Virus record (IMG/VR): IMGVR_UViG_3300045988_176929
Length of the DNA: 54,964 nucleotides
Strand: one strand, 5' to 3'
Origin: a virus
The notes beneath the pieces are model-generated. The model ran no database searches. It was not told where the DNA came from and was given only the letters and a program-made list of their open reading frames with translations. This document shows positions 3,238 through 45,138 of this stretch, piece by piece. The translations under genes were made by a program, and so were the position numbers. Each line of letters opens with the position of its first letter. Positions within the stretch are counted from its first letter, which is position 1.

Positions 3238-3280
3238 AACCCAACTTTTGACTATTATAAAATCCTCGTTATACAATTTA
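3163..3280 (+). repeat. Three more copies of the AAA(T)CCTCG(T)ACTTCTAAC-type motif
   Basis: AAAAACTCGTACTTCTAAC (3166), AAAATCCTCGTACTTCTAAC (3188), AAAATCCTCGTTATACAAT (3259). Confidence 0.8.
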
Positions 3281-3338
3281 CAATTATTGTAAAATTGTTA
3301 AATTGAGAAATTTGCATGAAATTAATAAAAAGCAAAAT

Positions 3339-3352
3339 GTTTCACGTGAAAC
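3339..3352. promoter_or_regulatory. 14-bp palindrome GTTTCACGTGAAAC, copy 2 (18-bp ATGTTTCACGTGAAACAT)
   Basis: Exact. Confidence 0.9.
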
Positions 3353-3715
3353 ATAAAATAGGGAAAGTTTTAATTATAACAGAATTATTAATTTCATTAT
3401 TTAAACATAAATGTTATTAAACAAAAATATAGTTTATAATTTTTGTGTTTAATAATTATAATAAATATATAATATTATATAAATAATAATATGTGTAATA
3501 TATAAGGAATGTATGTGTATATAATATATGTGTTTTTTATGTGTGTTTATATATTATTTATTGTGATTATTAAATGCAAAAATTTTTAAAATTTAAAATA
3601 ACAACAATTATGAAATGAAAAAATTAAATAACATATGAAATAAATAATATTTGTTATTTTTATTACAAAATTAAATTTCAACAATTATTTAATTATTTTT
3701 TATGCATTTTTAACA

Positions 3716-3743
3716 TTGTGTTTTTTAAAATATTTGATATAAT
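3716..3743 (+). promoter_or_regulatory. Candidate sigma-A promoter for the island genes
   Basis: TTGTGT, 16-nt spacer, TGaTATAAT. Confidence 0.45.
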
Positions 3744-3807
3744 TGCATCGTAACAATAAATCATATGAATGTTTCGCAAATACATTTAAAAAAATTGCAT
3801 AAATGTT

Positions 3808-4431
3808 ATGTATTCATTTGAAAAACGATATTATAATGATGAAAAATTACGTTTAATTGATGCATCGCAATTGAATAATGAAAATGACGAATATATTGTA
3901 TTATTTCAACGTGACGCATTACAAAATTTTATTGATTGTTATTGCAAATTTTATTTTACAATGAATGATGCATATGATGATTATATTAAATCATTTAAAA
4001 TAATGTGTAATGTGTTTGACAAACAAATTGTTATTAATGAATTTGAAAAAATATTTTCAAAATATGACGAAGATGTAAAAATAATTAATTGCATGTATTT
4101 TGATTATTTGAATACGGGTGATTATGCATTGTTTTTTGTTGTATATGAAAAACAAATGATTAATGAAATTAATACATTTGTTGATATTTATGAAATTGAT
4201 TATGATTTTTATGATTATGAAGAAGGTGATGAATTTCATTTTAAAATTAATGATTATGCATCATATTTGTTTTTCAATAAATATAATGCAATGCAATTTT
4301 TATTTGATTATAATAATGATTATGAAAAAATTGAAATTAAATCATCATATTATCACAATTTGTCAAAATATATAAATAATCATAATAAATATGTTTCAAA
4401 ATTTGAAAATGTTTCACGTGAAACATATTAA
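3808..4431 (+). CDS. Island paralog 1: acidic N/D/Y/F/I/K-rich protein with no Pro or Trp
   Basis: A 207-aa ORF in about 15% GC DNA is highly non-random; shares two blocks with paralog 2; no SD. Confidence 0.75.
   Translation: MYSFEKRYYNDEKLRLIDASQLNNENDEYIVLFQRDALQNFIDCYCKFYFTMNDAYDDYIKSFKIMCNVFDKQIVINEFEKIFSKYDEDVKIINCMYFDYLNTGDYALFFVVYEKQMINEINTFVDIYEIDYDFYDYEEGDEFHFKINDYASYLFFNKYNAMQFLFDYNNDYEKIEIKSSYYHNLSKYINNHNKYVSKFENVSRETY
4261..4319 (+). repeat. 59-bp perfect direct repeat, copy A
   Basis: Identical to 4992..5050; encodes SYLFFNKYNAMQFLFDYNN. Confidence 0.9.
4411..4424. promoter_or_regulatory. 14-bp palindrome, copy 3
   Basis: Exact; overlaps the last codons of paralog 1. Confidence 0.9.
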
Positions 4432-4493
4432 TAACAAAATTAACAATGATTGTAACGTGAATGCAAACGTTTAATAAAAATGCATAAAATAAT

Positions 4494-5078
4494 ATGTATC
4501 ATTTTATTGATGAAAATAATTGTTATGATAAAATTAAAATTGTTGACGAAAACGAAAAAATTGATGAAATGTTTTGTAACAAAACGAATGAACAAATTGT
4601 AATTTTTAATTTTGATGCATTACAACAATTTATTGATTGTTTTTATGAAAACGAATTTCAAAAATTTTTTGATTGTGATAAAAATGATTTCATTATTGAA
4701 TTTAATGATTTTAATTTTAAATTTTGTAAAAAAATGAAAAATTATGATAAAAAACGAATCGAAAAAAAATTTTACAAAATAAAATCAATATATGATGATT
4801 GTAACGTGATTAAATGTGTATTTTTTAACAATTGTTGTCATATATCATCATATTTACATTTGCATATAATTTATTGTAAAAATGATGATAAAAATATTTT
4901 TATTGATGATTATATAATAATGTATAACGTCGATAAATTTAAAATTAAACATGATGCAAAACGAACATTCAATTCACAAAATGATGCATTATCATATTTG
5001 TTTTTCAATAAATATAATGCAATGCAATTTTTATTTGATTATAATAATGAAATTGATAAAAAACAAATTTTATATTGA
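4494..5078 (+). CDS. Island paralog 2 (no Gly, Pro or Trp)
   Basis: 194-aa ORF; DALQQFIDCFY and SYLFFNKYNAMQFLFDYNN blocks shared with paralog 1. Confidence 0.75.
   Translation: MYHFIDENNCYDKIKIVDENEKIDEMFCNKTNEQIVIFNFDALQQFIDCFYENEFQKFFDCDKNDFIIEFNDFNFKFCKKMKNYDKKRIEKKFYKIKSIYDDCNVIKCVFFNNCCHISSYLHLHIIYCKNDDKNIFIDDYIIMYNVDKFKIKHDAKRTFNSQNDALSYLFFNKYNAMQFLFDYNNEIDKKQILY
4992..5050 (+). repeat. 59-bp perfect direct repeat, copy B
   Basis: Identical to 4261..4319. Confidence 0.9.
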
Positions 5079-5163
5079 TGATTTTGATTTTTCGATTGAT
5101 TATGACACATATAAAACAATTTTCGCATGATTCACAATTCATGTAAAACAATTGTAAAATGTT

Positions 5164-5496
5164 ATGTTTGAAATGAATAATAAAAATGTAATTGTAACAC
5201 GTTATAATGATGAAATGAAACAATATTTTAAAAACATTGTTGATGATATTTATTGTGATGATGTATCATATAATACAATGTGCAACGAAAATATTGATGC
5301 ATTTTTTAAAAATAATGCATATATGCATTATGAATATACATTAATTAAAAATGATGATATTTTACATATTATTGTTTTTAATAACAATGAATTTAAAATT
5401 GTTTCATATAAAATAAATGATGATTTTGAATTTATACGTTTTAATGTTTCATATGTTTATAATGTATATGATTTATTTTCAATAATTTTTAATTAA
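5164..5496 (+). CDS. Island paralog 3 (no Gly, Pro or Trp)
   Basis: 110-aa ORF preceded by TTGTAAAATGTT directly abutting the ATG. Confidence 0.65.
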   Translation: MFEMNNKNVIVTRYNDEMKQYFKNIVDDIYCDDVSYNTMCNENIDAFFKNNAYMHYEYTLIKNDDILHIIVFNNNEFKIVSYKINDDFEFIRFNVSYVYNVYDLFSIIFN

Positions 5497-5499
5497 TAT

Positions 5500-5513
5500 G
5501 TTTCACGTGAAAC
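5500..5513. promoter_or_regulatory. 14-bp palindrome, copy 4
   Basis: Exact; 4 nt after the stop of paralog 3. Confidence 0.9.
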
Positions 5514-5568
5514 AATGTAACAAATAATAATGTTGTGTGTTCGCAAATCACAAAAATTGCAAAATATT

Positions 5569-5986
5569 ATGAAAATTAATTATGTTGTAAAAAAATTTGA
5601 ATGTATCGAAATTTACAAAAATATTGATGATTTTTTTTAAAATGCAATTTGAATGTTTATTTGATGATATTAATTGTATTTTTAATTTATCATATGATAT
5701 TAAACAAATAAAATTATCATATTGTAAAATGAAATGCGAATTGAAAAAAAATAATATTAAAAATTATGTTATTATTTGTGATTTTGAACATGAAAAATTT
5801 TATTTGATTGACAAACAAAATGACAATTTTATAACAAATAATATAACAAATAAAATGTATCAATTTAATTTTGATTTTGAAAATGTCGAAAATAATAAAT
5901 TATATGAAATTGACGATACATCAAAATTAAATATTGCAATGTATTATTTATATGAAATTTGTCATTGTAATGATGAACAAATATAA
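5569..5986 (+). CDS. Island paralog 4, interrupted by a +1 frame change in a T8 run (5631-5638)
   Basis: The ATG at 5569 has the family start motif TTGCAAAATATT but stops at 5638-5640. The long ORF (5597..5986) lies in the next frame. One T fewer would fuse them. Confidence 0.5.
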
Positions 5987-6051
5987 TTTTTAAAAATGTA
6001 AACAAAATATTAATTGTCAACAATTGCACGTTGTAAAATTGCATAAATATC

Positions 6052-6414
6052 ATGTTGAATAAAAAAATTATTGAAAAATTCAAAAATTTTGAAAATGATG
6101 TGAACGATTATGATTTATTTGAATTTTACACATTTGATGAATTTTTGAAAATATTTGAAAATGTTAATGATGAATATAAAATTTCATATTATGAAAAAAC
6201 ACAAAAATTGATAAATGAATATCATTGTAATAATGACAATACAATCGTATTATTGTATAATTGCGATGATGACGAATATTTAATAATCAATTTTGAAAAT
6301 GATAATTTGATTATTACGCAAAATATTGAAATTGAATATACAAATGATGATTTATGCAAAAATGCATTATATGAAATTTTACAATATATGTTTACAAATG
6401 AATATTATGATTGA
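6052..6414 (+). CDS. Island paralog 5 (no Gly, Pro or Trp)
   Basis: 120-aa ORF preceded by TTGCATAAATATC directly before the ATG. Confidence 0.65.
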   Translation: MLNKKIIEKFKNFENDVNDYDLFEFYTFDEFLKIFENVNDEYKISYYEKTQKLINEYHCNNDNTIVLLYNCDDDEYLIINFENDNLIITQNIEIEYTNDDLCKNALYEILQYMFTNEYYD

Positions 6415-6524
6415 TTGTTAACGAAAACAATTAAAAAAATTCGTATTACAAAATGATATTTTCAATATTTGTGTTTTTTGCATTTTACATTATTTTGTTT
6501 TATTTATTTGATTAATTAAATGAA

Positions 6525-6654
6525 TGTGATTTTTACACAAAAATTCGATTTACGAAAAAATCGTAATAAAACAAAATTCATTATACGTGTAAAAAATTCG
6601 ATATACACAATAAATATAAAATCGTCGTTTTACAAATTATGTGTAAAAATCACA
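6525..6654. repeat. 15-bp inverted repeat pair TGTGATTTTTACACA / TGTGTAAAAATCACA
   Basis: 6525-6539 and 6640-6654 are exact reverse complements. Confidence 0.85.
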
Positions 6655-6734
6655 TTTCATCGTAATACACATTATGTAAAAAATAACGTATAATTAAAAA
6701 TGCGAAATATTAAAAAATACGTGTAAAATAAAAA

Positions 6735-6797
6735 TTTACATACAATGTAAAAAATTAATGTGTAAAAAATTACATTAAAAAATACATTGTATGTAAA
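6735..6797. repeat. Nested hairpin: 15-bp inverted repeat TTTACATACAATGTA / TACATTGTATGTAAA with an inner TTAATGT/ACATTAA pair
   Basis: 6735-6749 and 6783-6797 are exact reverse complements. Confidence 0.85.
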
Positions 6798-7033
6798 ATA
6801 ATGTGTATAATAAATCATATGATAATTAATTAAATATATGTAATGATAATTACAATGTACATATTAATTGATATGATAAAACAATTATGAATACAAAACA
6901 TAATGAATTATTTATAACAACATTTGAATGTAATAATTATAATTACAAAACAACATTATAAATTATTGATTACAAATTACATTGTCAACGTCATTAAAAT
7001 AATTATTTTTATATTCGTATATATGCGTAAATT

Positions 7034-7047
7034 GTTTCACGTGAAAC
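7034..7047. promoter_or_regulatory. 14-bp palindrome, copy 5, flanked by direct repeats TATTCGTATATATGC
   Basis: Exact. Confidence 0.9.
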
Positions 7048-7167
7048 ATTGCAAAATAATTTATTCGTATATATGCATATAATAACAATTGTTTTTAAAA
7101 TCATGTGTTATTATCATGCAATTAAATAACAACATATATCATTGTTTATTTTTGTGCAATTTTTATA

Positions 7168-7195
7168 TTGCAATTATTTGTGTATGCGTTATAAT
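7168..7195 (+). promoter_or_regulatory. Candidate sigma-A promoter for paralog 6
   Basis: TTGCAA, 16-nt spacer, TATAAT. Confidence 0.45.
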
Positions 7196-7262
7196 GTAAT
7201 TACAAAATAAATAATGATTGTGTGATTCGACACAACACACGTTAATCAAATGTCAAAATGTT

Positions 7263-7553
7263 ATGATAAACAATAATATAAATGTACAAACAAAATATTT
7301 CATTACAAAAAATGATATTTACAAATTATGTGTTGAAAATGATTTTTGTACATGTTGCGACAATGAACAGTATGACGAATTATTATCATCAAATTTATTG
7401 TATGTATGTAATAATATTGATGATTTAAAACGACATTTATTAATTGTTGCAAATGATATATATAAATATTCGTGTGATACAAATATTGAAAATATATTAT
7501 ATTTATTATTTAATAAATGTGTACATACATTATTTAAAATAAATAATAAATAA
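7263..7553 (+). CDS. Island paralog 6 (no Gly, Pro or Trp)
   Basis: ATG preceded by TGTCAAAATGTT as in the other paralogs. The ORF-track start at 7218 is a TTG further upstream. Confidence 0.6.
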   Translation: MINNNINVQTKYFITKNDIYKLCVENDFCTCCDNEQYDELLSSNLLYVCNNIDDLKRHLLIVANDIYKYSCDTNIENILYLLFNKCVHTLFKINNK

Positions 7554-7584
7554 TTAAATATTTACAATTAAATAAATGTAAATT

Positions 7585-7615
7585 ATGCACGTTGAAAAAT
7601 AACGTGCATTTTTTA
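7585..7615 (+). terminator. Rho-independent terminator closing the island
   Basis: ATGCACGTT / AACGTGCAT stem, 7-nt loop, then a T6 run. Confidence 0.85.
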
Positions 7616-7670
7616 TGTTTAATTAAATAACAAATGTTATTATAACAAATGTAATTTAATCATTTTAAAA

Positions 7671-7684
7671 ATAACGATCGTTAT
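7671..7684. repeat. 14-bp perfect palindrome ATAACGATCGTTAT at the island's right boundary
   Basis: Exact; 7 nt before the first GG at 7691. Confidence 0.85.
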
Positions 7685-7851
7685 AATAACGGGTGGTTTG
7701 TTTTGTTGTGTCATTTTGAAAATAGACCGTCTAACTCCTAGAAATCCTACTTTCATATATATATAAGGCCCTCAGCTCCATTCGAGGATATGCCTGAGGA
7801 TGCGTAGGAGCCTCAAATAGACGTCTGAATGATGATCGTTGCCTATTTATT

Positions 7852-7903
7852 CATGTTCGTTTGCAACGTTCCTGTATGAGGCAAATACGACGTTGCAACA
7901 TGA
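7852..7903 (+). promoter_or_regulatory. Hairpin with conserved loop TGTATGAGGCAAATACG in the terS leader
   Basis: Stem TTGCAACGT (7861-7869) / ACGTTGCAA (7890-7898), plus outer CATGT/ACATG. Confidence 0.6.
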
Positions 7904-8030
7904 CATAAAAAATGCAAAAATAAAGCCAAAAACTAAAAAGTGAGAAAAGTGTTATAAAAATATTTCTCTAGCAGAAATTGAAAGCCTATAAGGCCCCACG
8001 TTATTACATAAAGGAAGGAGGATTAAATAA

Positions 8031-8642
8031 GTGGGAAAGGTAAATGAAAGTAAAGTTGATTATTGGTTAACTGATGATGGTTTAATTCTTGTTGAAGCAT
8101 GGGCAAGGGATGGTTACCTGTTGGATGACATTGCACAAAGGATGGGAATTGAACGACAAACATTATATACCTGGCGTAAGAAGTATCCTGAAATTGCACG
8201 AGCATTAAACACTGGGAAAGAACTTATTGATTACAAGGTAGAGAATGCATTATTAAAAGCAGCATTAGGTTATACCACAAAGGAAATTAAAGTAACATTA
8301 GGTAAGAAGATGTTAAATGGTGAAGTGTATGAAGTATTAAAAGAAACCACCACCCGGGAAATTGCCCCGAATGTTACTGCTTGTATGGCATGGTTGAATA
8401 ACAGAAAGCATGACCAGTGGAAACGTAACAGGGATAAGGTGTTAGAAATGGATGAAGAAGATTCCAACATCAATATCACCATTGTACGTGGTAATCCAAA
8501 GCAGGATAATTTAGGTGATAATGTAAATCAGGAAGTTAAATTTGAACCGAAGAAAGAGGAGCAGGTTGAAGTAAATTCCGCTGATGAAAATGATCCTGAT
8601 TATTGGCCCGATGATTGGGAGGATGAAGATGAGGATAATTAA
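8031..8642 (+). CDS. terS: Terminase small subunit
   Basis: GTG start 8 nt after AAGGAAGGAGGA; N-terminal HTH (DDIAQRMGIERQTLYTWRKKY); acidic tail; sits immediately upstream of terL. Confidence 0.75.
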   Translation: MGKVNESKVDYWLTDDGLILVEAWARDGYLLDDIAQRMGIERQTLYTWRKKYPEIARALNTGKELIDYKVENALLKAALGYTTKEIKVTLGKKMLNGEVYEVLKETTTREIAPNVTACMAWLNNRKHDQWKRNRDKVLEMDEEDSNINITIVRGNPKQDNLGDNVNQEVKFEPKKEEQVEVNSADENDPDYWPDDWEDEDEDN

Positions 8643-8882: not shown

Positions 8883-10229
8883 ATGGCAAAAGCAACAATG
8901 AATATAAGTCCTGCTTTTGACAATTTTATTTTTGATTGGGATTATGAAACATACTTAGTAATTGGTTCTTATGGTAGTGGTAAATCACATGGTATTGTAC
9001 AAAAGATAATTTTAAAATGTTTTGAGGAAAAAAGAAAAGTGTGTGTATTCCGTGATGTTTATGATACACATAAGGAATCTACATTTGACTTATTAAAACA
9101 AGTTTTGGAAGATATGGGTTTACTTGCTGATAATGGTGTGAGAAAACATCCATTTAAAGTATGTTTCAAAAATTCACCTTTGGAGTTTAAATTTCCAAAT
9201 GGTTCGAGAATAATTTTCAAAGGTATGGATAGTACTGAAAAGTTAAAATCCTTAAATGGTGTTTCTATTGTATGGATAGAAGAATGTTCAGAAGTATCAT
9301 ATGATGCTTACTTGGAATTGTTAGGTCGTATTAGAACGCCAAATAAAACAATGCACTTTATTTTAAGTTGCAATCCTGTTGGTAAGTTTAACTGGGTTTA
9401 TCAACAGTTCTTTGAAAAAATAAATGAAGATGGTACAACAAATGTTATTCTACGTGATGAGGTTTTATATGAAAGAAAGACCTTAGTAAAAAATGGGGTT
9501 TATTATCACCATTCGACTTGTGATGATAATCCATTTTTGCCTCCTGAATATATAAAACGTCTTGATGATTTAAAAACATATGATAAATCTTTATGGGTTG
9601 TTGCACGTCTTGGTAGATTTGGTGCAACAGGTATGCGTGTATTACCTCAGTTTGAAGTAATGAATACAAAAATGGTTAATCACTTTGTTAGTGAACTTGA
9701 TCCTAAATGGCATCGTGTTGGTATGGACTTTGGATTTGAAACTTCATACAATGCGGTTATTAAGGTTGCTATTGACGATAAGAATAAGTGGTTGTATATT
9801 TATAAAGAATATTACAAAAATAAAATGACTGATGATAAAACAGCTGTTGAACTTGTTAATTGGGATAGTGAAATTAAGGATCAAAGAATTAAAGCTGATA
9901 ATGCTGAACCAAAAACAATTCGTTATTTTAGAAACCAAGGTTTTCAAATGTTTCCTTGTCAAAAGAAATGTGATAAAAAATCTGAGGGTAGTAGAATTGC
10001 AAATACAAGAAAGTGTAAACGTTTCCGAAGAATTATTTGTTCCTCCGATTGTATAAATACAATTAAGGAGTTAAAGGATCTTACTTATAAAAAGAATAAG
10101 GATGGAACAATTAATTATAGTAAATTCAATATTGACCCTCATACATTTTCTGCTATATGGTATGCAATTGATGATTATAATGTAGCTGATTTAAAGGAAC
10201 GTAAAAACAATAGTATTAGAGGTAAATAA
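8883..10229 (+). CDS. terL: Terminase large subunit (PBSX/terminase_3-like)
   Basis: Walker A GSYGSGKSHG; 448 aa; C-terminal nuclease-like region. Confidence 0.9.
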   Translation: MAKATMNISPAFDNFIFDWDYETYLVIGSYGSGKSHGIVQKIILKCFEEKRKVCVFRDVYDTHKESTFDLLKQVLEDMGLLADNGVRKHPFKVCFKNSPLEFKFPNGSRIIFKGMDSTEKLKSLNGVSIVWIEECSEVSYDAYLELLGRIRTPNKTMHFILSCNPVGKFNWVYQQFFEKINEDGTTNVILRDEVLYERKTLVKNGVYYHHSTCDDNPFLPPEYIKRLDDLKTYDKSLWVVARLGRFGATGMRVLPQFEVMNTKMVNHFVSELDPKWHRVGMDFGFETSYNAVIKVAIDDKNKWLYIYKEYYKNKMTDDKTAVELVNWDSEIKDQRIKADNAEPKTIRYFRNQGFQMFPCQKKCDKKSEGSRIANTRKCKRFRRIICSSDCINTIKELKDLTYKKNKDGTINYSKFNIDPHTFSAIWYAIDDYNVADLKERKNNSIRGK

Positions 10230-11439: not shown

Positions 11440-12533
11440 TGGAAAAGGGCATTGATGTTAGTTCTTACCAAAATGAAATTGATTGGGCTAAAGTTAAAAA
11501 AAGTGGTGTTAAGTTTGCAATTATTAAATTAATAAGAAAAGATTTAACACTTGATAAAAGGGCTCTTGAGAATGTAAAAGGATGTTTGTTGAATGGTATT
11601 AAGTTTAGCTTTTACAATTATTCATATGCAACAAACGTTAGTTACTCTGAAATGCTTGCAAACAAAATTGTTCAATTTGTGAAATATTTCAGAACTTGTA
11701 ATAGTATTAATACTACTTTGTTTGATAAATATTTTGAAAAATACATCTGGCTTGACATTGAGGATAAAACCCAAATGAACTTAGGACATACAATTGTTGA
11801 TATGTCAAAAGCTTATCAGAAAGTAATTGAAGATAATGGGTTAGAATTTGGTATTTATACTGGTCTTAGTTTTTATAATACTTGTTTTTCAAAATATGCA
11901 TCAGAATTTAATAATCCATTTTGGATCGCAAGATATTATAATGGTTATAAAAAAATGCAATTTTGTGCTAATGCTAACTCTATGAAAAAACCTGTTATTA
12001 AAAATGGATTATGGGGTTGGCAATATACTTCTTCTGGAATTGTTGATGGTATTACAGGAAATGTTGATTTGAATGAAAGATATGATGAGATTATTAACAT
12101 GGATAATCTTTATGGTGTTTGTGAATTTTCTATAATCAAAGATGGTAAACGTTATATTTCAAAAAACTTTACTGTTGATGAATTTAGATGTAAGGATGGT
12201 TCAGATAAAATCTTAATTGATGTTGATTTTGTTAAAAGTTATTTACAGAAAATAAGAGATTATTTTAAATCCCCTGTTACAATAAATTCTGCTTATAGAA
12301 CAGAATCTTATAACAACAAAGTTGGTGGTGCTAAAAATTCGTACCACAAAAAAGGAATGGCATTTGATATTGTTGTTAAAGGTAGAACTCCATTAGAAGT
12401 TTCAAGATATGCTCAGCAACTTGGAATTGGTGGAGTTATTAAATATAATACTTTTGTTCATGTTGATAGCAGAACAACTGTATATCATGCAATAAATAAT
12501 AATGGTAAAATAACTGTTGTTAAAAACTTTTAA
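11439..12533 (+). CDS. Bifunctional endolysin: GH25 muramidase plus Peptidase_M15 (D-Ala-D-Ala carboxypeptidase-like) domain
   Basis: GIDVSSYQNEIDWAKVKKSGVKFAIIK (GH25); SAYRTESYNNKVGGAKNSYHKKGMAFDI...HVDSR (M15 zinc peptidase). Confidence 0.85.
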   Translation: MEKGIDVSSYQNEIDWAKVKKSGVKFAIIKLIRKDLTLDKRALENVKGCLLNGIKFSFYNYSYATNVSYSEMLANKIVQFVKYFRTCNSINTTLFDKYFEKYIWLDIEDKTQMNLGHTIVDMSKAYQKVIEDNGLEFGIYTGLSFYNTCFSKYASEFNNPFWIARYYNGYKKMQFCANANSMKKPVIKNGLWGWQYTSSGIVDGITGNVDLNERYDEIINMDNLYGVCEFSIIKDGKRYISKNFTVDEFRCKDGSDKILIDVDFVKSYLQKIRDYFKSPVTINSAYRTESYNNKVGGAKNSYHKKGMAFDIVVKGRTPLEVSRYAQQLGIGGVIKYNTFVHVDSRTTVYHAINNNGKITVVKNF

Positions 12534-32714: not shown

Positions 32715-32785
32715 AGGTATATAGCTTAGTGGTAGAAGCAAACAATTTAATTGTTAAGTCACAGGTTCGATTCCTGTTATATCTA
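32715..32785 (+). tRNA. tRNA with a short anticodon arm; best 7-nt loop reading gives anticodon UUA (ochre-suppressor-like)
   Basis: Acceptor AGGTATA/TATATCT; D arm GCTT-AGTGGTAG-AAGC; T arm ACAGG-TTCGATT-CCTGT. The anticodon arm AACAA-TTTAA-TTGTT folds as 5 bp with a 5-nt loop, or 4 bp with loop ATTTAAT. Confidence 0.75.
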
Positions 32786-35959: not shown

Positions 35960-36013
35960 ACAAATTGGGGAGACATAGTTCTTCCCATTTGAATTTTATT
36001 GGAGGTTGAAGAA

Positions 36014-36520
36014 ATGAAGAAAAACATTGTAGTGTTTGGTTGTGATAATACAGGCAAGACTACACTTGCACAAAAGATTGCTTTTAAATTAGGAAGTCAA
36101 TATGTAAAAAGTTTAGGACCTAATAGAACAAAGAATGAACAGTTAGATTTCATGTTTGAAAATTTAAACTCTGACGGTATAAAGGTATTTGATCGTTTCC
36201 CGATAATTGAGGAGAGTACAAGTGGTGTTGTTTTAAGAGGCCATGATAATTTCCAAACGTGGCGTGAGCAGGAAATGGATTTGCTTAGCAAAGTTGATGT
36301 TTTTATTTTCTGTAATCCTGGTTTATTTAACACATTAAATTGGGGTGAACGGGAACAACTTGTAGGTGTAAAAGATCATGCACTGGAGTTAATCAATAAG
36401 TATAATGAAATTGCAGTTCTTTTGCAGCAGTATCATCATAATGTAATTGAGTATAATTATATAATTGATCCTATTGGAAATTTTTTTATTAGTGATTTAA
36501 AAGTTAAATTGGGGGTATAA
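36014..36520 (+). CDS. P-loop NTPase (deoxynucleotide kinase-like)
   Basis: VFGCDNTGKTTLAQ Walker A; about 170 aa; ATG after GGAGG. Confidence 0.45.
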   Translation: MKKNIVVFGCDNTGKTTLAQKIAFKLGSQYVKSLGPNRTKNEQLDFMFENLNSDGIKVFDRFPIIEESTSGVVLRGHDNFQTWREQEMDLLSKVDVFIFCNPGLFNTLNWGEREQLVGVKDHALELINKYNEIAVLLQQYHHNVIEYNYIIDPIGNFFISDLKVKLGV

Positions 36521-36524
36521 CGGA

Positions 36525-37169
36525 ATGAATATTACTCATGCGGTTGAAGAAAAAATTGAAGGTGACAAGTTAGAAGCAATATTTGAAAGACAAAAAAGTT
36601 TAATGTTTAAGTACCATGATATTGAAAAGAAAAGTGGTTTACTACAAACAGAAGATTGTCCTGTTAATCTTGATGATAAAAGAGGCCAGGCAAGAATTAA
36701 GGATTTCTCATGGAGGGTAATGGAAGAAGTTGGGGAAGCACTTGATGCAAGAGAAGATGGGGACCGGGAACATTTTTGTGAAGAATTGATTGATGGTTTA
36801 CATTTTCTTACTGAATTAACAATTCTTGCAGGATATGAACCGAAAGATATTTGTTGGGAAGAACCGAATCAGATGGATATGCTTGATTACATGGTTATGA
36901 ATGTTGAGGATGTTATGGAGTGTATTAATATTAGCAATTATGTTGCAAACTTAGTAATGGATTTGGGTATGATGTGTAACTGCTTGAAGAATAAACCATG
37001 GAAGCAGACAAACATGATTACCGATAAGGAACATTTCCACAATAAACTTTGTTGTGTTTGGAATGATTACATTCATCTTTTAAGTACAGAAATGAACGCA
37101 AATGAAATTGCAATGGTTTACTTAAAGAAGTCACAGGTAAATAAGTTTAGACAGAGGTCGGGATATTGA
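36525..37169 (+). CDS. All-alpha NTP pyrophosphohydrolase (MazG / dimeric dUTPase-like)
   Basis: EEVGEALDA and EELIDGLHFL acidic helices, plus NKPWKQ. Confidence 0.5.
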   Translation: MNITHAVEEKIEGDKLEAIFERQKSLMFKYHDIEKKSGLLQTEDCPVNLDDKRGQARIKDFSWRVMEEVGEALDAREDGDREHFCEELIDGLHFLTELTILAGYEPKDICWEEPNQMDMLDYMVMNVEDVMECINISNYVANLVMDLGMMCNCLKNKPWKQTNMITDKEHFHNKLCCVWNDYIHLLSTEMNANEIAMVYLKKSQVNKFRQRSGY

Positions 37170-37930
37170 AGGTAAGGAAGTATAAAGATTTTGATGAAAT
37201 GTTTTTAAAACTTAATCAGGAAATAGTAACTAATCCTTGGGAAATGTTAGATTACTCTAACGGTATATTAGGTTACATGGATAATGTTTTTATTGCTTGT
37301 AAGAATTGGAATTGTAATTTAGATTTAGGTAAGTTTGGTTATAAAAAGAACAAATGGCCACACTTGCTTAAAACATATATTAATTATGATGAGTTACTTA
37401 AATTCCATGAAAGACTTGCAACAGCTTCTGGTTTAAGTTTGACATTTTATTTTAATCAAAAGAAAATTAACAATGGATCTTGCTTGTTAGAAATTGTTTT
37501 GTCAAGAAAGGATAGAACAAAGAAGTGGGATAAATGTAATGTTATTTACAGAACAACAGAAACACAAAGAAGAATGGCTGCTGATCTTTGTTTAATAAAT
37601 AGTTTTATAAGGGAGTTACCTGAATGTTGTGAAATTGAAAGGGTTACATTTTATATGGCTCAATCATATATTTCTGCAATGGTTATAAATGGTTACTTTG
37701 ACTATTTTGGGGTTGATATGAGTACCCTTGATAAAACACATCCTTGGATAAAGAATTTGGTTAATCAACATGACCACAATTTTGTTCCTGGGGCAAGAAT
37801 TACAACTTATCAATCAATGGCAAAGATGCAAAAGTTAGCATTAGGAATGGATGATTGTCCACCAATGTTGTGTAAGGATTTATCAATAAAAGAATTTTTT
37901 GAAAGTAGAATTAAGAAGGGAGCAAAATAA
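37166..37930 (+). CDS. Divergent thymidylate-synthase-fold protein lacking the canonical H..Y end motif
   Basis: GSCLLEIVL...CNVIYRTTETQRR...LINSFI...RVTFYMAQSYI aligns in order with the TS core PC..QF / QRS.D / N / H.Y. Confidence 0.4.
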   Translation: MKVRKYKDFDEMFLKLNQEIVTNPWEMLDYSNGILGYMDNVFIACKNWNCNLDLGKFGYKKNKWPHLLKTYINYDELLKFHERLATASGLSLTFYFNQKKINNGSCLLEIVLSRKDRTKKWDKCNVIYRTTETQRRMAADLCLINSFIRELPECCEIERVTFYMAQSYISAMVINGYFDYFGVDMSTLDKTHPWIKNLVNQHDHNFVPGARITTYQSMAKMQKLALGMDDCPPMLCKDLSIKEFFESRIKKGAK

Positions 37931-38656
37931 ATGAGAATCTATATGAACTGGGCGGAAGCATACGAGGAGATTAAAAGGGATCTTGCTGAAATGGGTATTC
38001 TTGTAAAACCTAAAACGATGCAGGATAAGGTTGTAGAAGGAAACCCTGATTATGAAACAATGGAGTTGCAGAATTATTGCTATACAATTCTTAATGCAAA
38101 ATCCAAAGATATTACTGGGGTAATTCAACCTTGGGCTGATGCAGAATTTATGGAAAGAATTTGCAATCCGTTTGCATCAAAAGAATTTACAGGCTGTCTT
38201 GATAAACCCGAATTTATTAATCCTGGGGAAGCATGGAAGTTAAGAAAAGATGTCTGGACTGAGTATATGCATGATGGTAAAATGGCTTATACTTACAATG
38301 AAAGAATCTGGCGTAATGAACAGCTTACAAAAATTATTGAAAGATTAAAGCAGGACCATGATTCAAGACAGTTATGGTTGAGTATCTGGGATCCTAATGA
38401 GGATGTTGATAAGCTAGGTGGTGTTTCCCGTGTTCCTTGTTCATTAGGTTATAATTTCCAATTCAGGGATGGTAAACTTAACATTCACTATGTTATGCGT
38501 AGCTGTGATTTCAATACACACTTTATTAATGATGTGTACTTAGGAATTAAACTTTTGGAATATGTTGCTGATAAATGTGGAATGGAAGTAGGTAATTTCA
38601 CCCATACAATGTTCTCCTTGCACGTTTATAAAAAAGACGTTGCAAATGTGTTTTAA
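37931..38656 (+). CDS. Thymidylate synthase-like pyrimidine C5 transferase (ThyA family, C-terminally short)
   Basis: DSRQLWLSIWDP...VPCSLGYNFQFRDGKLNIHYVMRSCDFNTHFINDVY...FSLHVY parallels ThyA DSRR..WN..PCH..QF..QRSCD..PFN..THLY. Confidence 0.7.
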   Translation: MRIYMNWAEAYEEIKRDLAEMGILVKPKTMQDKVVEGNPDYETMELQNYCYTILNAKSKDITGVIQPWADAEFMERICNPFASKEFTGCLDKPEFINPGEAWKLRKDVWTEYMHDGKMAYTYNERIWRNEQLTKIIERLKQDHDSRQLWLSIWDPNEDVDKLGGVSRVPCSLGYNFQFRDGKLNIHYVMRSCDFNTHFINDVYLGIKLLEYVADKCGMEVGNFTHTMFSLHVYKKDVANVF

Positions 38657-44476: not shown

Positions 44477-44669
44477 AAGATATTCTATATATAATGTTGC
44501 ACCAACTAATTTTTCAGCTATTTTTATAGAGTGTAAGCCACAACAAATATGGGGATATGTAAAGTTTGAGGATAAGGTAGATTTGATTAGGGACAATGTT
44601 AGTATGTATATTTCAATATCTGATTTTGAAGAAAATTGGGAGGTTATTGATGATGGAAAGAATGAGTAA
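44436..44669 (+). CDS. Hypothetical protein
   Basis: In-frame ATG within ORF 44385..44669. Confidence 0.4.
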   Translation: MSMRRVVKTKCRIKRYSIYNVAPTNFSAIFIECKPQQIWGYVKFEDKVDLIRDNVSMYISISDFEENWEVIDDGKNE

Positions 44670-45138
44670 GAAGGATTATTATTTAGGTATTGCATTAGCT
44701 GTTTCAAAACGATCCCCATGTTTAAGAAGACGTTATGGTTGTATCATTGTAAAGAATGATGAGATAATTGCAACTGGGTATAATGGATCCCCTAGAGGTG
44801 AGTTAAATTGTTGTGATTGCTATGAGGAATGTCCAAGAAAAGATAAGCCACATAATTCTGGGGATTATTCAGATTGCACATCAGTTCATGCTGAACAAAA
44901 TGCTATGTTATCAGCTGCAAGGAAAGATATGATTGGTGCAACAATGTATTTGGTAGCAGAAGAGGTTTATTTCAATCTTAAGGAGGTTCATTTATGGGGT
45001 AAACTTAAGGGTATAAAACCATGCCCTATTTGTGAACGTATGATAAAGAATGCAGGAATAGAAAGAATAATAACAGTAGAAGGAATTATTTGGAAAAAAA
45101 GAAATCTTGAAAAGGTGGTTAAAAATGGTTGGTTATAA
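44650..45138 (+). CDS. dCMP deaminase (ComEB-like)
   Basis: ATG after GGGAGG; VHAEQNA and PCPICERMI zinc motifs. Confidence 0.85.
   Translation: MMERMSKKDYYLGIALAVSKRSPCLRRRYGCIIVKNDEIIATGYNGSPRGELNCCDCYEECPRKDKPHNSGDYSDCTSVHAEQNAMLSAARKDMIGATMYLVAEEVYFNLKEVHLWGKLKGIKPCPICERMIKNAGIERIITVEGIIWKKRNLEKVVKNGWL

Follow-up and report, generated by a model that had tools for sequence, protein, structure and literature searches.

An island of 4,183 nucleotides (nt) at positions 3508-7690 of the DNA of an uncultured gut phage in IMG/VR record IMGVR_UViG_3300045988_176929 (54,964 nt; we call this whole stretch the window) is almost devoid of the dinucleotides AG and GG and of their complements CT and CC, and related phages carry islands at the corresponding place, in which either all four dinucleotides or AG and CT alone are avoided. 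The genes inside have altered their codons and ribosome-binding sites to comply with this ban, which runs through non-coding DNA as well and spans a stretch with the anatomy of an operon, and the islands have lost GATC beyond the level seen in the rest of the same genomes. We favour the view, to which we give a probability of roughly 40%, that the island is an early operon, probably the first to enter the cell, from which the minimal target of some DNA-targeting agent has been purged, an extreme form of the leading-region avoidance known from phage T5.

On recount, the numbers and positions that an earlier note had taken from the window alone proved identical: in 3508-7690, AG occurs four times (4071, 4221, 4224 and 7369), GG three times (4116, 4117 and 4225) and CT and CC not once, against 192 AG, 47 GG, 116 CT and 21 CC expected from base composition. 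Its estimate of roughly 15% G+C was too low, as we compute 17.7% for the island versus 31.3% for the remaining window. The longest stretch free of all four dinucleotides measures 3,144 nt (4225-7369); outside the island, with the left transition zone (see below) also set aside, gaps between them have a median of 4 nt and a maximum of 73 nt, and a scan of the whole window revealed no second region with comparable dinucleotide loss. Mononucleotide shuffles of the island contain 377±14 forbidden dinucleotides (minimum 333), and synonymous recoding of its six proteins gives 147±10 with genome-wide codons or 141±9 with codons of island composition, all far above the seven observed. The under-representation, which is strand-symmetric, hence exceeds what composition and codon usage would give. 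Within the non-coding part of the island (1,627 nt) none is left (148±8.5 in the null), and the codon junctions of its genes include only three in which A meets G and one in which G meets G. Because the rule holds in non-coding DNA and across codon junctions, it acts at the nucleotide level on both strands and is not a codon or amino-acid bias, just as the earlier note had maintained. The window's exceptions are one-sided, all seven being AG or GG; those of one related island (L037, see below) show no such strand bias.

The right edge is as sharp as had been claimed, with GGG starting at 7691 directly 3' of the palindrome ATAACGATCGTTAT. On the left the transition is gradual: the last AGG does lie at 3505 (3505-3506), and CC and CT end at 3264/3265 rather than at about 3269, as had been proposed. 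Two zones can be delimited in this way.

3266..3507, no strand: left transition zone, non-coding, without CT/CC and with 10 AG/GG left; it contains a promoter-like site and the first intergenic copy of the putative operator palindrome.
3508..7690, no strand: core island, with the seven AG/GG/CT/CC sites in 4,183 nt and G+C of 17.7%.

Relatives were gathered through the large terminase subunit (TerL) and through one island protein, the product of island gene 5. Those with 82-84% TerL identity have an island in the corresponding genomic position, so the ban recurs at the same place, in two specificities and in part leaky. The loci are given one per line.

L003: ban on AG/CT plus GG/CC; 1,588 nt with zero forbidden sites.
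L185: ban on AG/CT plus GG/CC; ~1,400 nt with zero forbidden sites.
L021: ban on AG/CT plus GG/CC; 689 nt with zero forbidden sites.
L001 (same phage as the window): ban on AG/CT plus GG/CC; ~1,040 nt with zero forbidden sites.
L183: ban on AG/CT plus GG/CC; few exceptions.
L036 and L037: ban on AG/CT plus GG/CC; about one exception per 150 nt.
L004: ban on AG/CT only; 1,764 nt.
L023: ban on AG/CT only; at least 1,961 nt.
L035: ban on AG/CT only; 1,243 nt with one exception.
L184: ban on AG/CT only; ~1.8 kilobases (kb), CT 0 and AG 6.

In the second set GG and CC are abundant and the encoded proteins include Gly, Pro and Trp; L023, L184 and L035 have a G+C content close to that of the genome as a whole, and L004 has a lower one (about 18-31%). 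As AG-only islands keep GG/CC plentiful, AG/CT is the common denominator of the islands and the window represents a stricter version, free of RG/CY (R, purine; Y, pyrimidine). The distance from the island end to the small terminase subunit gene (terS) is about 330-400 nt in L003, L004, L023, L036, L183 and L185, where a partly conserved non-coding spacer begins at that end, and ~480 nt in L184; in L037 the depleted run, leaky beyond ~10,550, ends at ~11,300 and a terS-sized gene starts at 11,626. The protein family founded by gene 5 comprises 95 homologue clusters in public metagenomes, ~80 of which lack any Gly, Pro or Trp down to ~45% identity, and homologous proteins span both ban types: P0089, encoded in an AG-only island, shares 44% identity with the gene 5 protein of the window. 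The minimal RG-free islands of L003 and L185 (~1.4-1.6 kb) encode only three proteins of 78-142 amino acids (aa). No island was seen at loci with TerL identity of 81% or less, in the deposited relatives CS266P4 (a cultured Clostridium phage) and Dulem virus 36, nor in a scan of 80 replication-module loci of the wider phage family. A candidate third ban type, 739 nt without GTA/TAC at L016:8360-9099, upstream of the terminase in a more distantly related phage, was rejected as repeat-rich non-coding DNA (AAAAATCGGCGG and AAAATCGTCTATGGAAAAC repeats) that is not comparable, and a conserved 15-mer from the island-terS spacer, used as a probe for further islands, found mainly chance matches. Contigs L001, L021, L022, L023 and L185, from several independent assemblies, terminate within or beside the island, which is at most suggestive of a long terminal repeat and could reflect physical genome ends, low coverage of very AT-rich DNA or strain variability.

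That the genes have yielded to the ban while remaining genes is evident from several of their features. Arg is encoded exclusively by CGN in the island, versus 72% AGR outside, Leu only by TTR, Lys only by AAA and Glu only by GAA. The coding consequences that the earlier note had derived, namely loss of Gly, Pro and Trp, of AGR, AGY and CTN codons and of any Shine-Dalgarno site, are thus borne out by codon usage and by the sequences upstream of the genes. Long open reading frames (ORFs) are nonetheless kept despite a G+C of 17-18%, island gene homologues are conserved between phages, and AlphaFold predicts confident folds (predicted local distance difference test, pLDDT, of 85 for the 120-aa gene 5 family and 73 for the 207-aa gene 1 paralogue). 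Genes outside islands use AGGAGG ribosome-binding sites. Those in the AG-only islands of L004, L023, L184 and L035 have G-run sites (GGGGTG, TGGGGGA, GGGGGGGTGG) at the distance of AGGAGG, located in L004 at 7345-7365, 7585-7604 and 8360-8378; G in place of A might still pair with anti-Shine-Dalgarno U of the host 16S rRNA as a G·U wobble. Genes of RG-free islands, where no Shine-Dalgarno site is possible, share the motif A(A/T)TGCA(T/A)AAA 9-11 nt upstream of ATG (in the window in 3790-3807, 4476-4493, 5146-5163, 6034-6051 and 7245-7262, and likewise before island genes of L003, L183, L185, L036 and L037), which may be an alternative translation-initiation or regulatory element. Since the genes compensate, and since the two specificities would need opposite mutational directions, the data argue strongly against a simple mutational scar and speak for selection against the dinucleotides themselves.

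A second and more classical type of avoidance is superimposed on this. In five islands together GATC occurs 3 times vs 24 expected, compared with ~0.2-0.85 of expectation in the rest of the same genomes (genome-wide 134 observed vs 158 expected for the window and 17 vs 92 for L003), and CCGG is missing from AG-only islands. Outside the islands GATC, CATG and CCGG are partly depleted to degrees that vary by relative (window, L003/L047, L004/L048, L023, L035), which suggests different host restriction systems. As GATC is nearly gone from the islands and only partly depleted elsewhere, the island is under stronger pressure against classical restriction sites than the remaining genome, and the AG/CT constraint is confined to it. 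Generic restriction avoidance was rejected as the full explanation, given that the island contains the allowed palindromes ACGT, TGCA, TCGA and AATT as often as expected, as do the regions outside islands for AGCT and CTAG, and low G+C was rejected as the cause of the ban, since AG-only islands have ~30% G+C. CpG is under-represented genome-wide (479 observed vs 1,132 expected, 0.42-fold); the island has 69 vs 31.5 expected by composition, about neutral given the ban.

The banned region has the layout of a compact operon next to the packaging genes, as the following features indicate.

3248..3277, plus strand: sigma-70-like promoter candidate at the left island edge (TTGACT-18-TACAAT), a consensus match only.
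3339..3352, no strand: palindrome GTTTCACGTGAAAC, putative operator, one of five exact copies in the window.
3808..4431, plus strand: island gene 1, encoding 207 aa and paralogous to gene 2, with six of the seven exceptions and the C-terminus NVSRETY.
4494..5078, plus strand: island gene 2, encoding 194 aa and paralogous to gene 1.
5164..5496, plus strand: island gene 3, 110 aa.
5597..5986, plus strand: island gene 4, whose product has 129 aa with a TTG start or 119 aa if the ATG at 5627 is used; a homologue lies in the L003 island (7649-8053).
6052..6414, plus strand: island gene 5, 120 aa, founder of the family present in all islands examined.
6415..7262, no strand: non-coding, ~0.8 kb, rich in short repeats, with one copy of the putative operator and a promoter candidate at 7168-7195.
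7168..7195: this second promoter candidate, a good one (TTGCAA-16-TATAAT).
7263..7553, plus strand: island gene 6, coding for 96 aa when read from the ATG at 7263, within an ORF that opens at 7218.
7585..7609, plus strand: intrinsic-terminator hairpin followed by a T-run, built only of allowed dinucleotides; a matching element ends the L003 island.
7691..8030, no strand: non-coding spacer between island and terS, partly conserved, at whose start the ban stops abruptly; candidate cos/pac region.
8031..8642, plus strand: terS, with a canonical AAGGAGG ribosome-binding site.
8883..10229, plus strand: terL, encoding TerL, the query for finding relatives.

As promoter region, genes and terminator together span the island, the banned region appears to coincide with one transcription unit, with ~80 nt between the terminator and the island boundary. 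Six small ORFs, host-type promoter candidates, five palindrome copies and a terminator make up what looks like an early-type gene cluster, presumably expressed early. The 14-bp perfect palindrome GTTTCACGTGAAAC (2567-2580, 3339-3352, 4411-4424, 5500-5513 and 7034-7047; five copies vs 0.14 expected) looks like an operator. It is also found in or beside the islands of L035, L037 and L183, covering both ban types, and encodes the C-terminal NVSRETY of island gene 1 and of several gene 1 homologues. Its first copy falls within the gene at 2279-2827, upstream of the island; the C-terminal domain encoded there (…LEYLRIYDENKNEVRKSAWV) has a second short copy in the AG-only island of L004 (L004:8005-8295), recoded without AG/CT. 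In the spacer, the blocks TCCTAGAAATCCTA...CATATATATA and GGCAAATAC are identical in the window (7691-8030), L003:8936-9263 and L004:8961-9258; no Rfam family matched the spacer, which is a candidate packaging site or structured RNA.

The window itself, a phage genome of ~54.8 kb, assembles as a circle with ends that overlap by 119 nt, and almost all of its genes lie on one strand. Its close relatives encode an SPP1-type portal, the families being Terminase_3 and SPP1_portal. Its replication and nucleotide module includes a DnaG-like primase, Pol III alpha and RecA, an exonuclease (Cas4-like), a resolvase (RuvC-like) and a DenV-like glycosylase, together with a deoxycytidine monophosphate (dCMP) deaminase, a nucleoside triphosphate (NTP) pyrophosphohydrolase, a kinase-like P-loop protein and a divergent enzyme of thymidylate-synthase (TS) fold. 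Among GenBank phages there was no DNA-level match to the island or to 22 kb of backbone, and the closest deposited TerL proteins (57% identity) are those of Clostridium phages and a lemur-gut virus. Relatives are binned with metagenome-assembled genomes of Lachnospiraceae and 'Bacilli', and the closest cultured ones (TerL 57%) infect a Clostridium. A tRNA gene at 32715-32785 (plus strand), called by both ARAGORN and Rfam, has the anticodon TTA, which would decode UAA, a stop codon; when translated with the standard bacterial code, the large ORFs are nevertheless uninterrupted.

How might such a region have arisen? We envisage a self-contained early operon in which two to six small genes are combined with host-type promoters, a palindromic operator in several copies and a terminator, and which has the packaging region and terS as its immediate downstream neighbours. 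This place just upstream of the terS spacer is compatible with, though no proof of, a position at the end that enters the cell first. Selection would remove from both of its strands the minimal element that a DNA-targeting agent requires, AG/CT in one set of islands and RG/CY in the other. As experiments have demonstrated for T5-like and T7-like phages, exposure would be limited to the DNA that enters and is expressed first; only targets in this part would matter because the products of the early region would protect the DNA that follows, and with a vulnerable region of just 1.5-4 kb a complete purge would be feasible. The agent could be a CRISPR system, whose protospacer-adjacent motif (PAM, e.g. 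NAG vs NRG) would have been lost through successive escape mutations, or else a nuclease whose recognition element is extremely short or depends on a modification. Either would fit because the ban concerns 2 nt on either strand, varies among close relatives and is tolerated sparsely in some lineages. The ban and its conservation, its two specificities, the compensation in the genes, the operon anatomy and the extra loss of GATC are observed; early expression, first entry into the cell, an anti-defence role of the genes and the identity of the agent are inferred. The earlier note had already proposed leading-region avoidance, and in this general form its proposal gains from the conserved ban, the two specificities, the gene compensation and the stronger GATC purge; the enzymes that it named (CviJI, Nt.CviQII and Nt.CviPII) serve as analogies only.

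Several observations sit uneasily with this scenario. The assembly is circular, and the Terminase_3 and SPP1_portal families also occur in headful packagers, which blurs the notion of a first-entering end; moreover, the island genes point towards terS, so that if the terS-proximal end went in first the promoters would come last. The rest of the genome is incompletely shielded from restriction, unlike second-step DNA of T5, because the remaining genomes also avoid GATC, CATG and CCGG. Searches of the island proteins against Pfam and PHROGs returned noise only, with no significant match and no anti-defence family, and a fold search of two AlphaFold models against PDB and BFVD gave nothing under E = 0.1. 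Exceptions in the leaky islands show no evident flanking-base rule that would indicate a longer motif. Finally, we are not aware of any bacterial nuclease with AG or RG specificity, nor do we know of a natural NAG/NRG PAM pair tied to the likely hosts.

A bolder form of the same idea, possible in our eyes if somewhat doubtful, is that an undescribed DNA-targeting activity reads only a dinucleotide, and that the first-expressed operon of this clade of gut phages is for that reason free of one or two of the ten base-pair steps. Such an activity, whose specificity would switch between AG and RG, might just as tentatively belong to a defence of the host or to an enzyme with which the phage itself destroys its host or marks DNA.

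An alternative rooted in DNA chemistry starts from the nucleotide-metabolism genes of the window.

35999..36520: P-loop kinase-like protein.
36525..37169: NTP pyrophosphohydrolase.
37166..37930, plus strand: strongly conserved 254-aa protein, encoded between the genes for pyrophosphohydrolase and TS-fold enzyme, with an invariant NGSC and several Arg.
37931..38656, plus strand: TS-fold enzyme, far below all thymidylate-synthase cut-offs.
44596..45138: dCMP deaminase.

When the TS-fold enzyme is aligned by BLASTP with T4 dCMP hydroxymethylase (sequence verified against PDB 1B49), MRSCDFNTHFINDVY pairs with MRSNDVVFGFRNDYA, which places an Asp at the position of T4 gp42 Asp179, the cytosine-specifying residue. 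The enzyme therefore looks like one that modifies dCMP and, given its scores, the Asp match and its company of pyrophosphohydrolase, P-loop protein and dCMP deaminase, the phage DNA may contain modified cytosine. A demand set by a DNA-binding or DNA-modifying activity that the phage itself encodes, which the earlier note had listed among its hypotheses, is thus conceivable. As the ban can be read as no C before T (or before Y) on either strand, it may be envisaged that a DNA-level step or a reader acts on C before T/Y and that such sites are excluded from an operon which the host machinery transcribes from parental DNA, or, in a variant, that they are excluded so that this DNA escapes a phage-encoded site-discriminating nuclease or transcription blocker. 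Stepwise DNA entry would not be required. We nevertheless regard this account, both versions taken together, as rather unlikely. An NTP pyrophosphohydrolase, a P-loop kinase-like protein and a dCMP deaminase, which might serve a T4-like pathway, are present, but no transferase was recognised, and a comparison of the replication and nucleotide module between ban types, in which the nucleotide-metabolism genes were conserved alike, revealed in the sequences compared no differing phage gene and no type-specific methyltransferase, glycosyltransferase or transglycosylase. The ban type apparently moves with the island module and not with the backbone, and genome-wide avoidance of CCGG, GATC and CATG suggests that ordinary enzymes cut this DNA. 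The 254-aa protein, encoded next to the TS-fold enzyme, has no relative in Pfam, NCBIfam or PDB and no detectable one of known function; the idea that it is a second TS-fold or other known enzyme was dropped as searches gave no support. Some related contigs carry two copies of it, in one NCBI record as adjacent genes.

Pairing of the ban type with the island module would also be accounted for, together with the absoluteness of the ban in coding and non-coding DNA, by self-immunity: an early phage nuclease would shred host DNA, as early products of T5 do, but at AG/CT or RG/CY, and the site-free island, as the sole phage DNA present at that time, would survive. How first-step DNA of T5 escapes host-DNA degradation is indeed an acknowledged open question (PMC10644984). 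Yet we consider this improbable, since the minimal islands of L003 and L185 encode three tiny Gly/Pro/Trp-free proteins without nuclease motif or fold, the leaky L036 and L037 islands with their site every ~150 nt would be cut, and stepwise entry and a nuclease switch-off would still have to be assumed.

More improbable still is a priming-free zone, in which the lack of CT/CY on either strand would prevent DnaG-type priming and leave long single-stranded tails beside the packaging site, where they could serve recombination or the formation of concatemers. The template trinucleotides at which primases of the DnaG type initiate have CT (CTG, CTA) or CC (CCC) in front, so that the banned dinucleotides equal the first two template bases; the phage does encode a DnaG-like primase along with RecA, Cas4-like exonuclease and RuvC-like resolvase, and the island invariably adjoins the packaging region. 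But the zone would have no reason to hold genes or to be further depleted of GATC, the primases of AG-only and RG-free phages are similarly diverged from that of the window (67% and 70% identity), and the island is rich in TTA, the triplet on which Firmicute primases rely.

The weakest candidate is a mutational footprint, in which a CY-to-TY deaminase or alkylation-type G-to-A change at RG (the context preferred by SN1 alkylating agents) would have saturated the region under nothing but purifying selection on proteins: although conversion of all CY/RG in normal phage sequence yields 5.6% C and 9.3% G, near the 7.1% and 10.6% of the island, it is highly improbable, and in its pure form largely excluded, because sister islands without AG/CT keep dense GG/CC at normal G+C and would need a different process of opposite direction, ribosome-binding sites were rebuilt as G-runs, Arg was kept through otherwise rare CGN codons, long ORFs and confident predicted folds remain, and the boundaries match the transcription unit in several diverged phages. 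The CY/RG editing that the earlier note had offered as an explanation is disfavoured for these reasons.

If our preferred reading of an early operon purged of a short target is right, the islands would be the most extreme viral target avoidance yet seen, and their sequence would directly read out which part of a genome is exposed to host immunity and what that immunity recognises. Regions free of a given k-mer could then serve as a computational signature by which uncultured phages are searched for anti-defence genes and for regions that lead or are expressed early, and would point to an agent with dinucleotide-level specificity or to full erasure of a PAM. Apart from this, the islands hold natural proteins, folded by prediction, without Gly, Pro and Trp, a 17-letter alphabet as the price of the ban, as well as two natural solutions for initiation without canonical Shine-Dalgarno sites (all-G sites and the TGCA-type element) in an otherwise Shine-Dalgarno-dependent phage. 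They may also bear on the question of how first-step-transfer DNA of T5-like phages comes through unharmed while the DNA of the host is destroyed.

Elements just as short as the banned dinucleotides are recognised by some nucleases. Chlorella viruses have frequent cutters and nickases such as CviJI (RGCY), Nt.CviQII (RAG) and Nt.CviPII (CCD), and modification-dependent enzymes read contexts of 2-3 nt (McrBC, RmC; FspEI, CmC; RlaI, VmCW). To our knowledge, no enzyme among these is specific for AG or RG/CY or has been described from the likely hosts, and no recognisable member of these short-site nucleases is encoded in the window. Full-text literature searches found no description or precedent of a dinucleotide-free phage region.

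The closest parallel is the first-step-transfer region of T5. Restriction-modification, Ssp and CRISPR systems of type I/II act on T5 and BF23 only if their sites fall within that region (PMC10644984, PMC5389539), and in Autographiviridae Type I restriction motifs count solely in the leading region (PMC12455610). Like the T5 region, the island is a block of small genes of early type, most of them without annotation, has host-type promoter candidates, lies where the genome map ends, takes up a few percent of the genome, includes repeat-rich non-coding DNA and has fewer defence target sites than the remaining genome, the T5 region having been selected to lack sites (PMC10644984, PMC5389539). Differences are that two-step entry and terminal repeats are features of T5 and that homologues of A1, A2 and dmp were not found here (no island protein matched the T5 pre-early A1, A2 or Dmp in Pfam, PHROG and fold searches). 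Above all, in T5 only individual 4-8-bp sites are missing, whereas here whole dinucleotide steps are, with effects on the amino-acid alphabet and on ribosome-binding sites. Leading regions of T7-like phages and conjugative plasmids differ in a similar manner, as single host-specific motifs are avoided there; one plasmid leading-region study, as far as its available text goes, weighed target depletion against adaptation for translational efficiency (PMC13478746). With genome-wide depletion of PAMs and restriction sites the islands share the strand-symmetric loss of short motifs under immune pressure (PMC4246573, PMC12174588), but the cases described in the available parts of these sources are statistical and genome-wide, while the loss here is local, essentially absolute, conserved and restricted to the island. 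On the reading that we prefer, the islands would therefore represent an extreme form of leading-region target avoidance, and an agent that is truly dinucleotide-specific would be new in kind.

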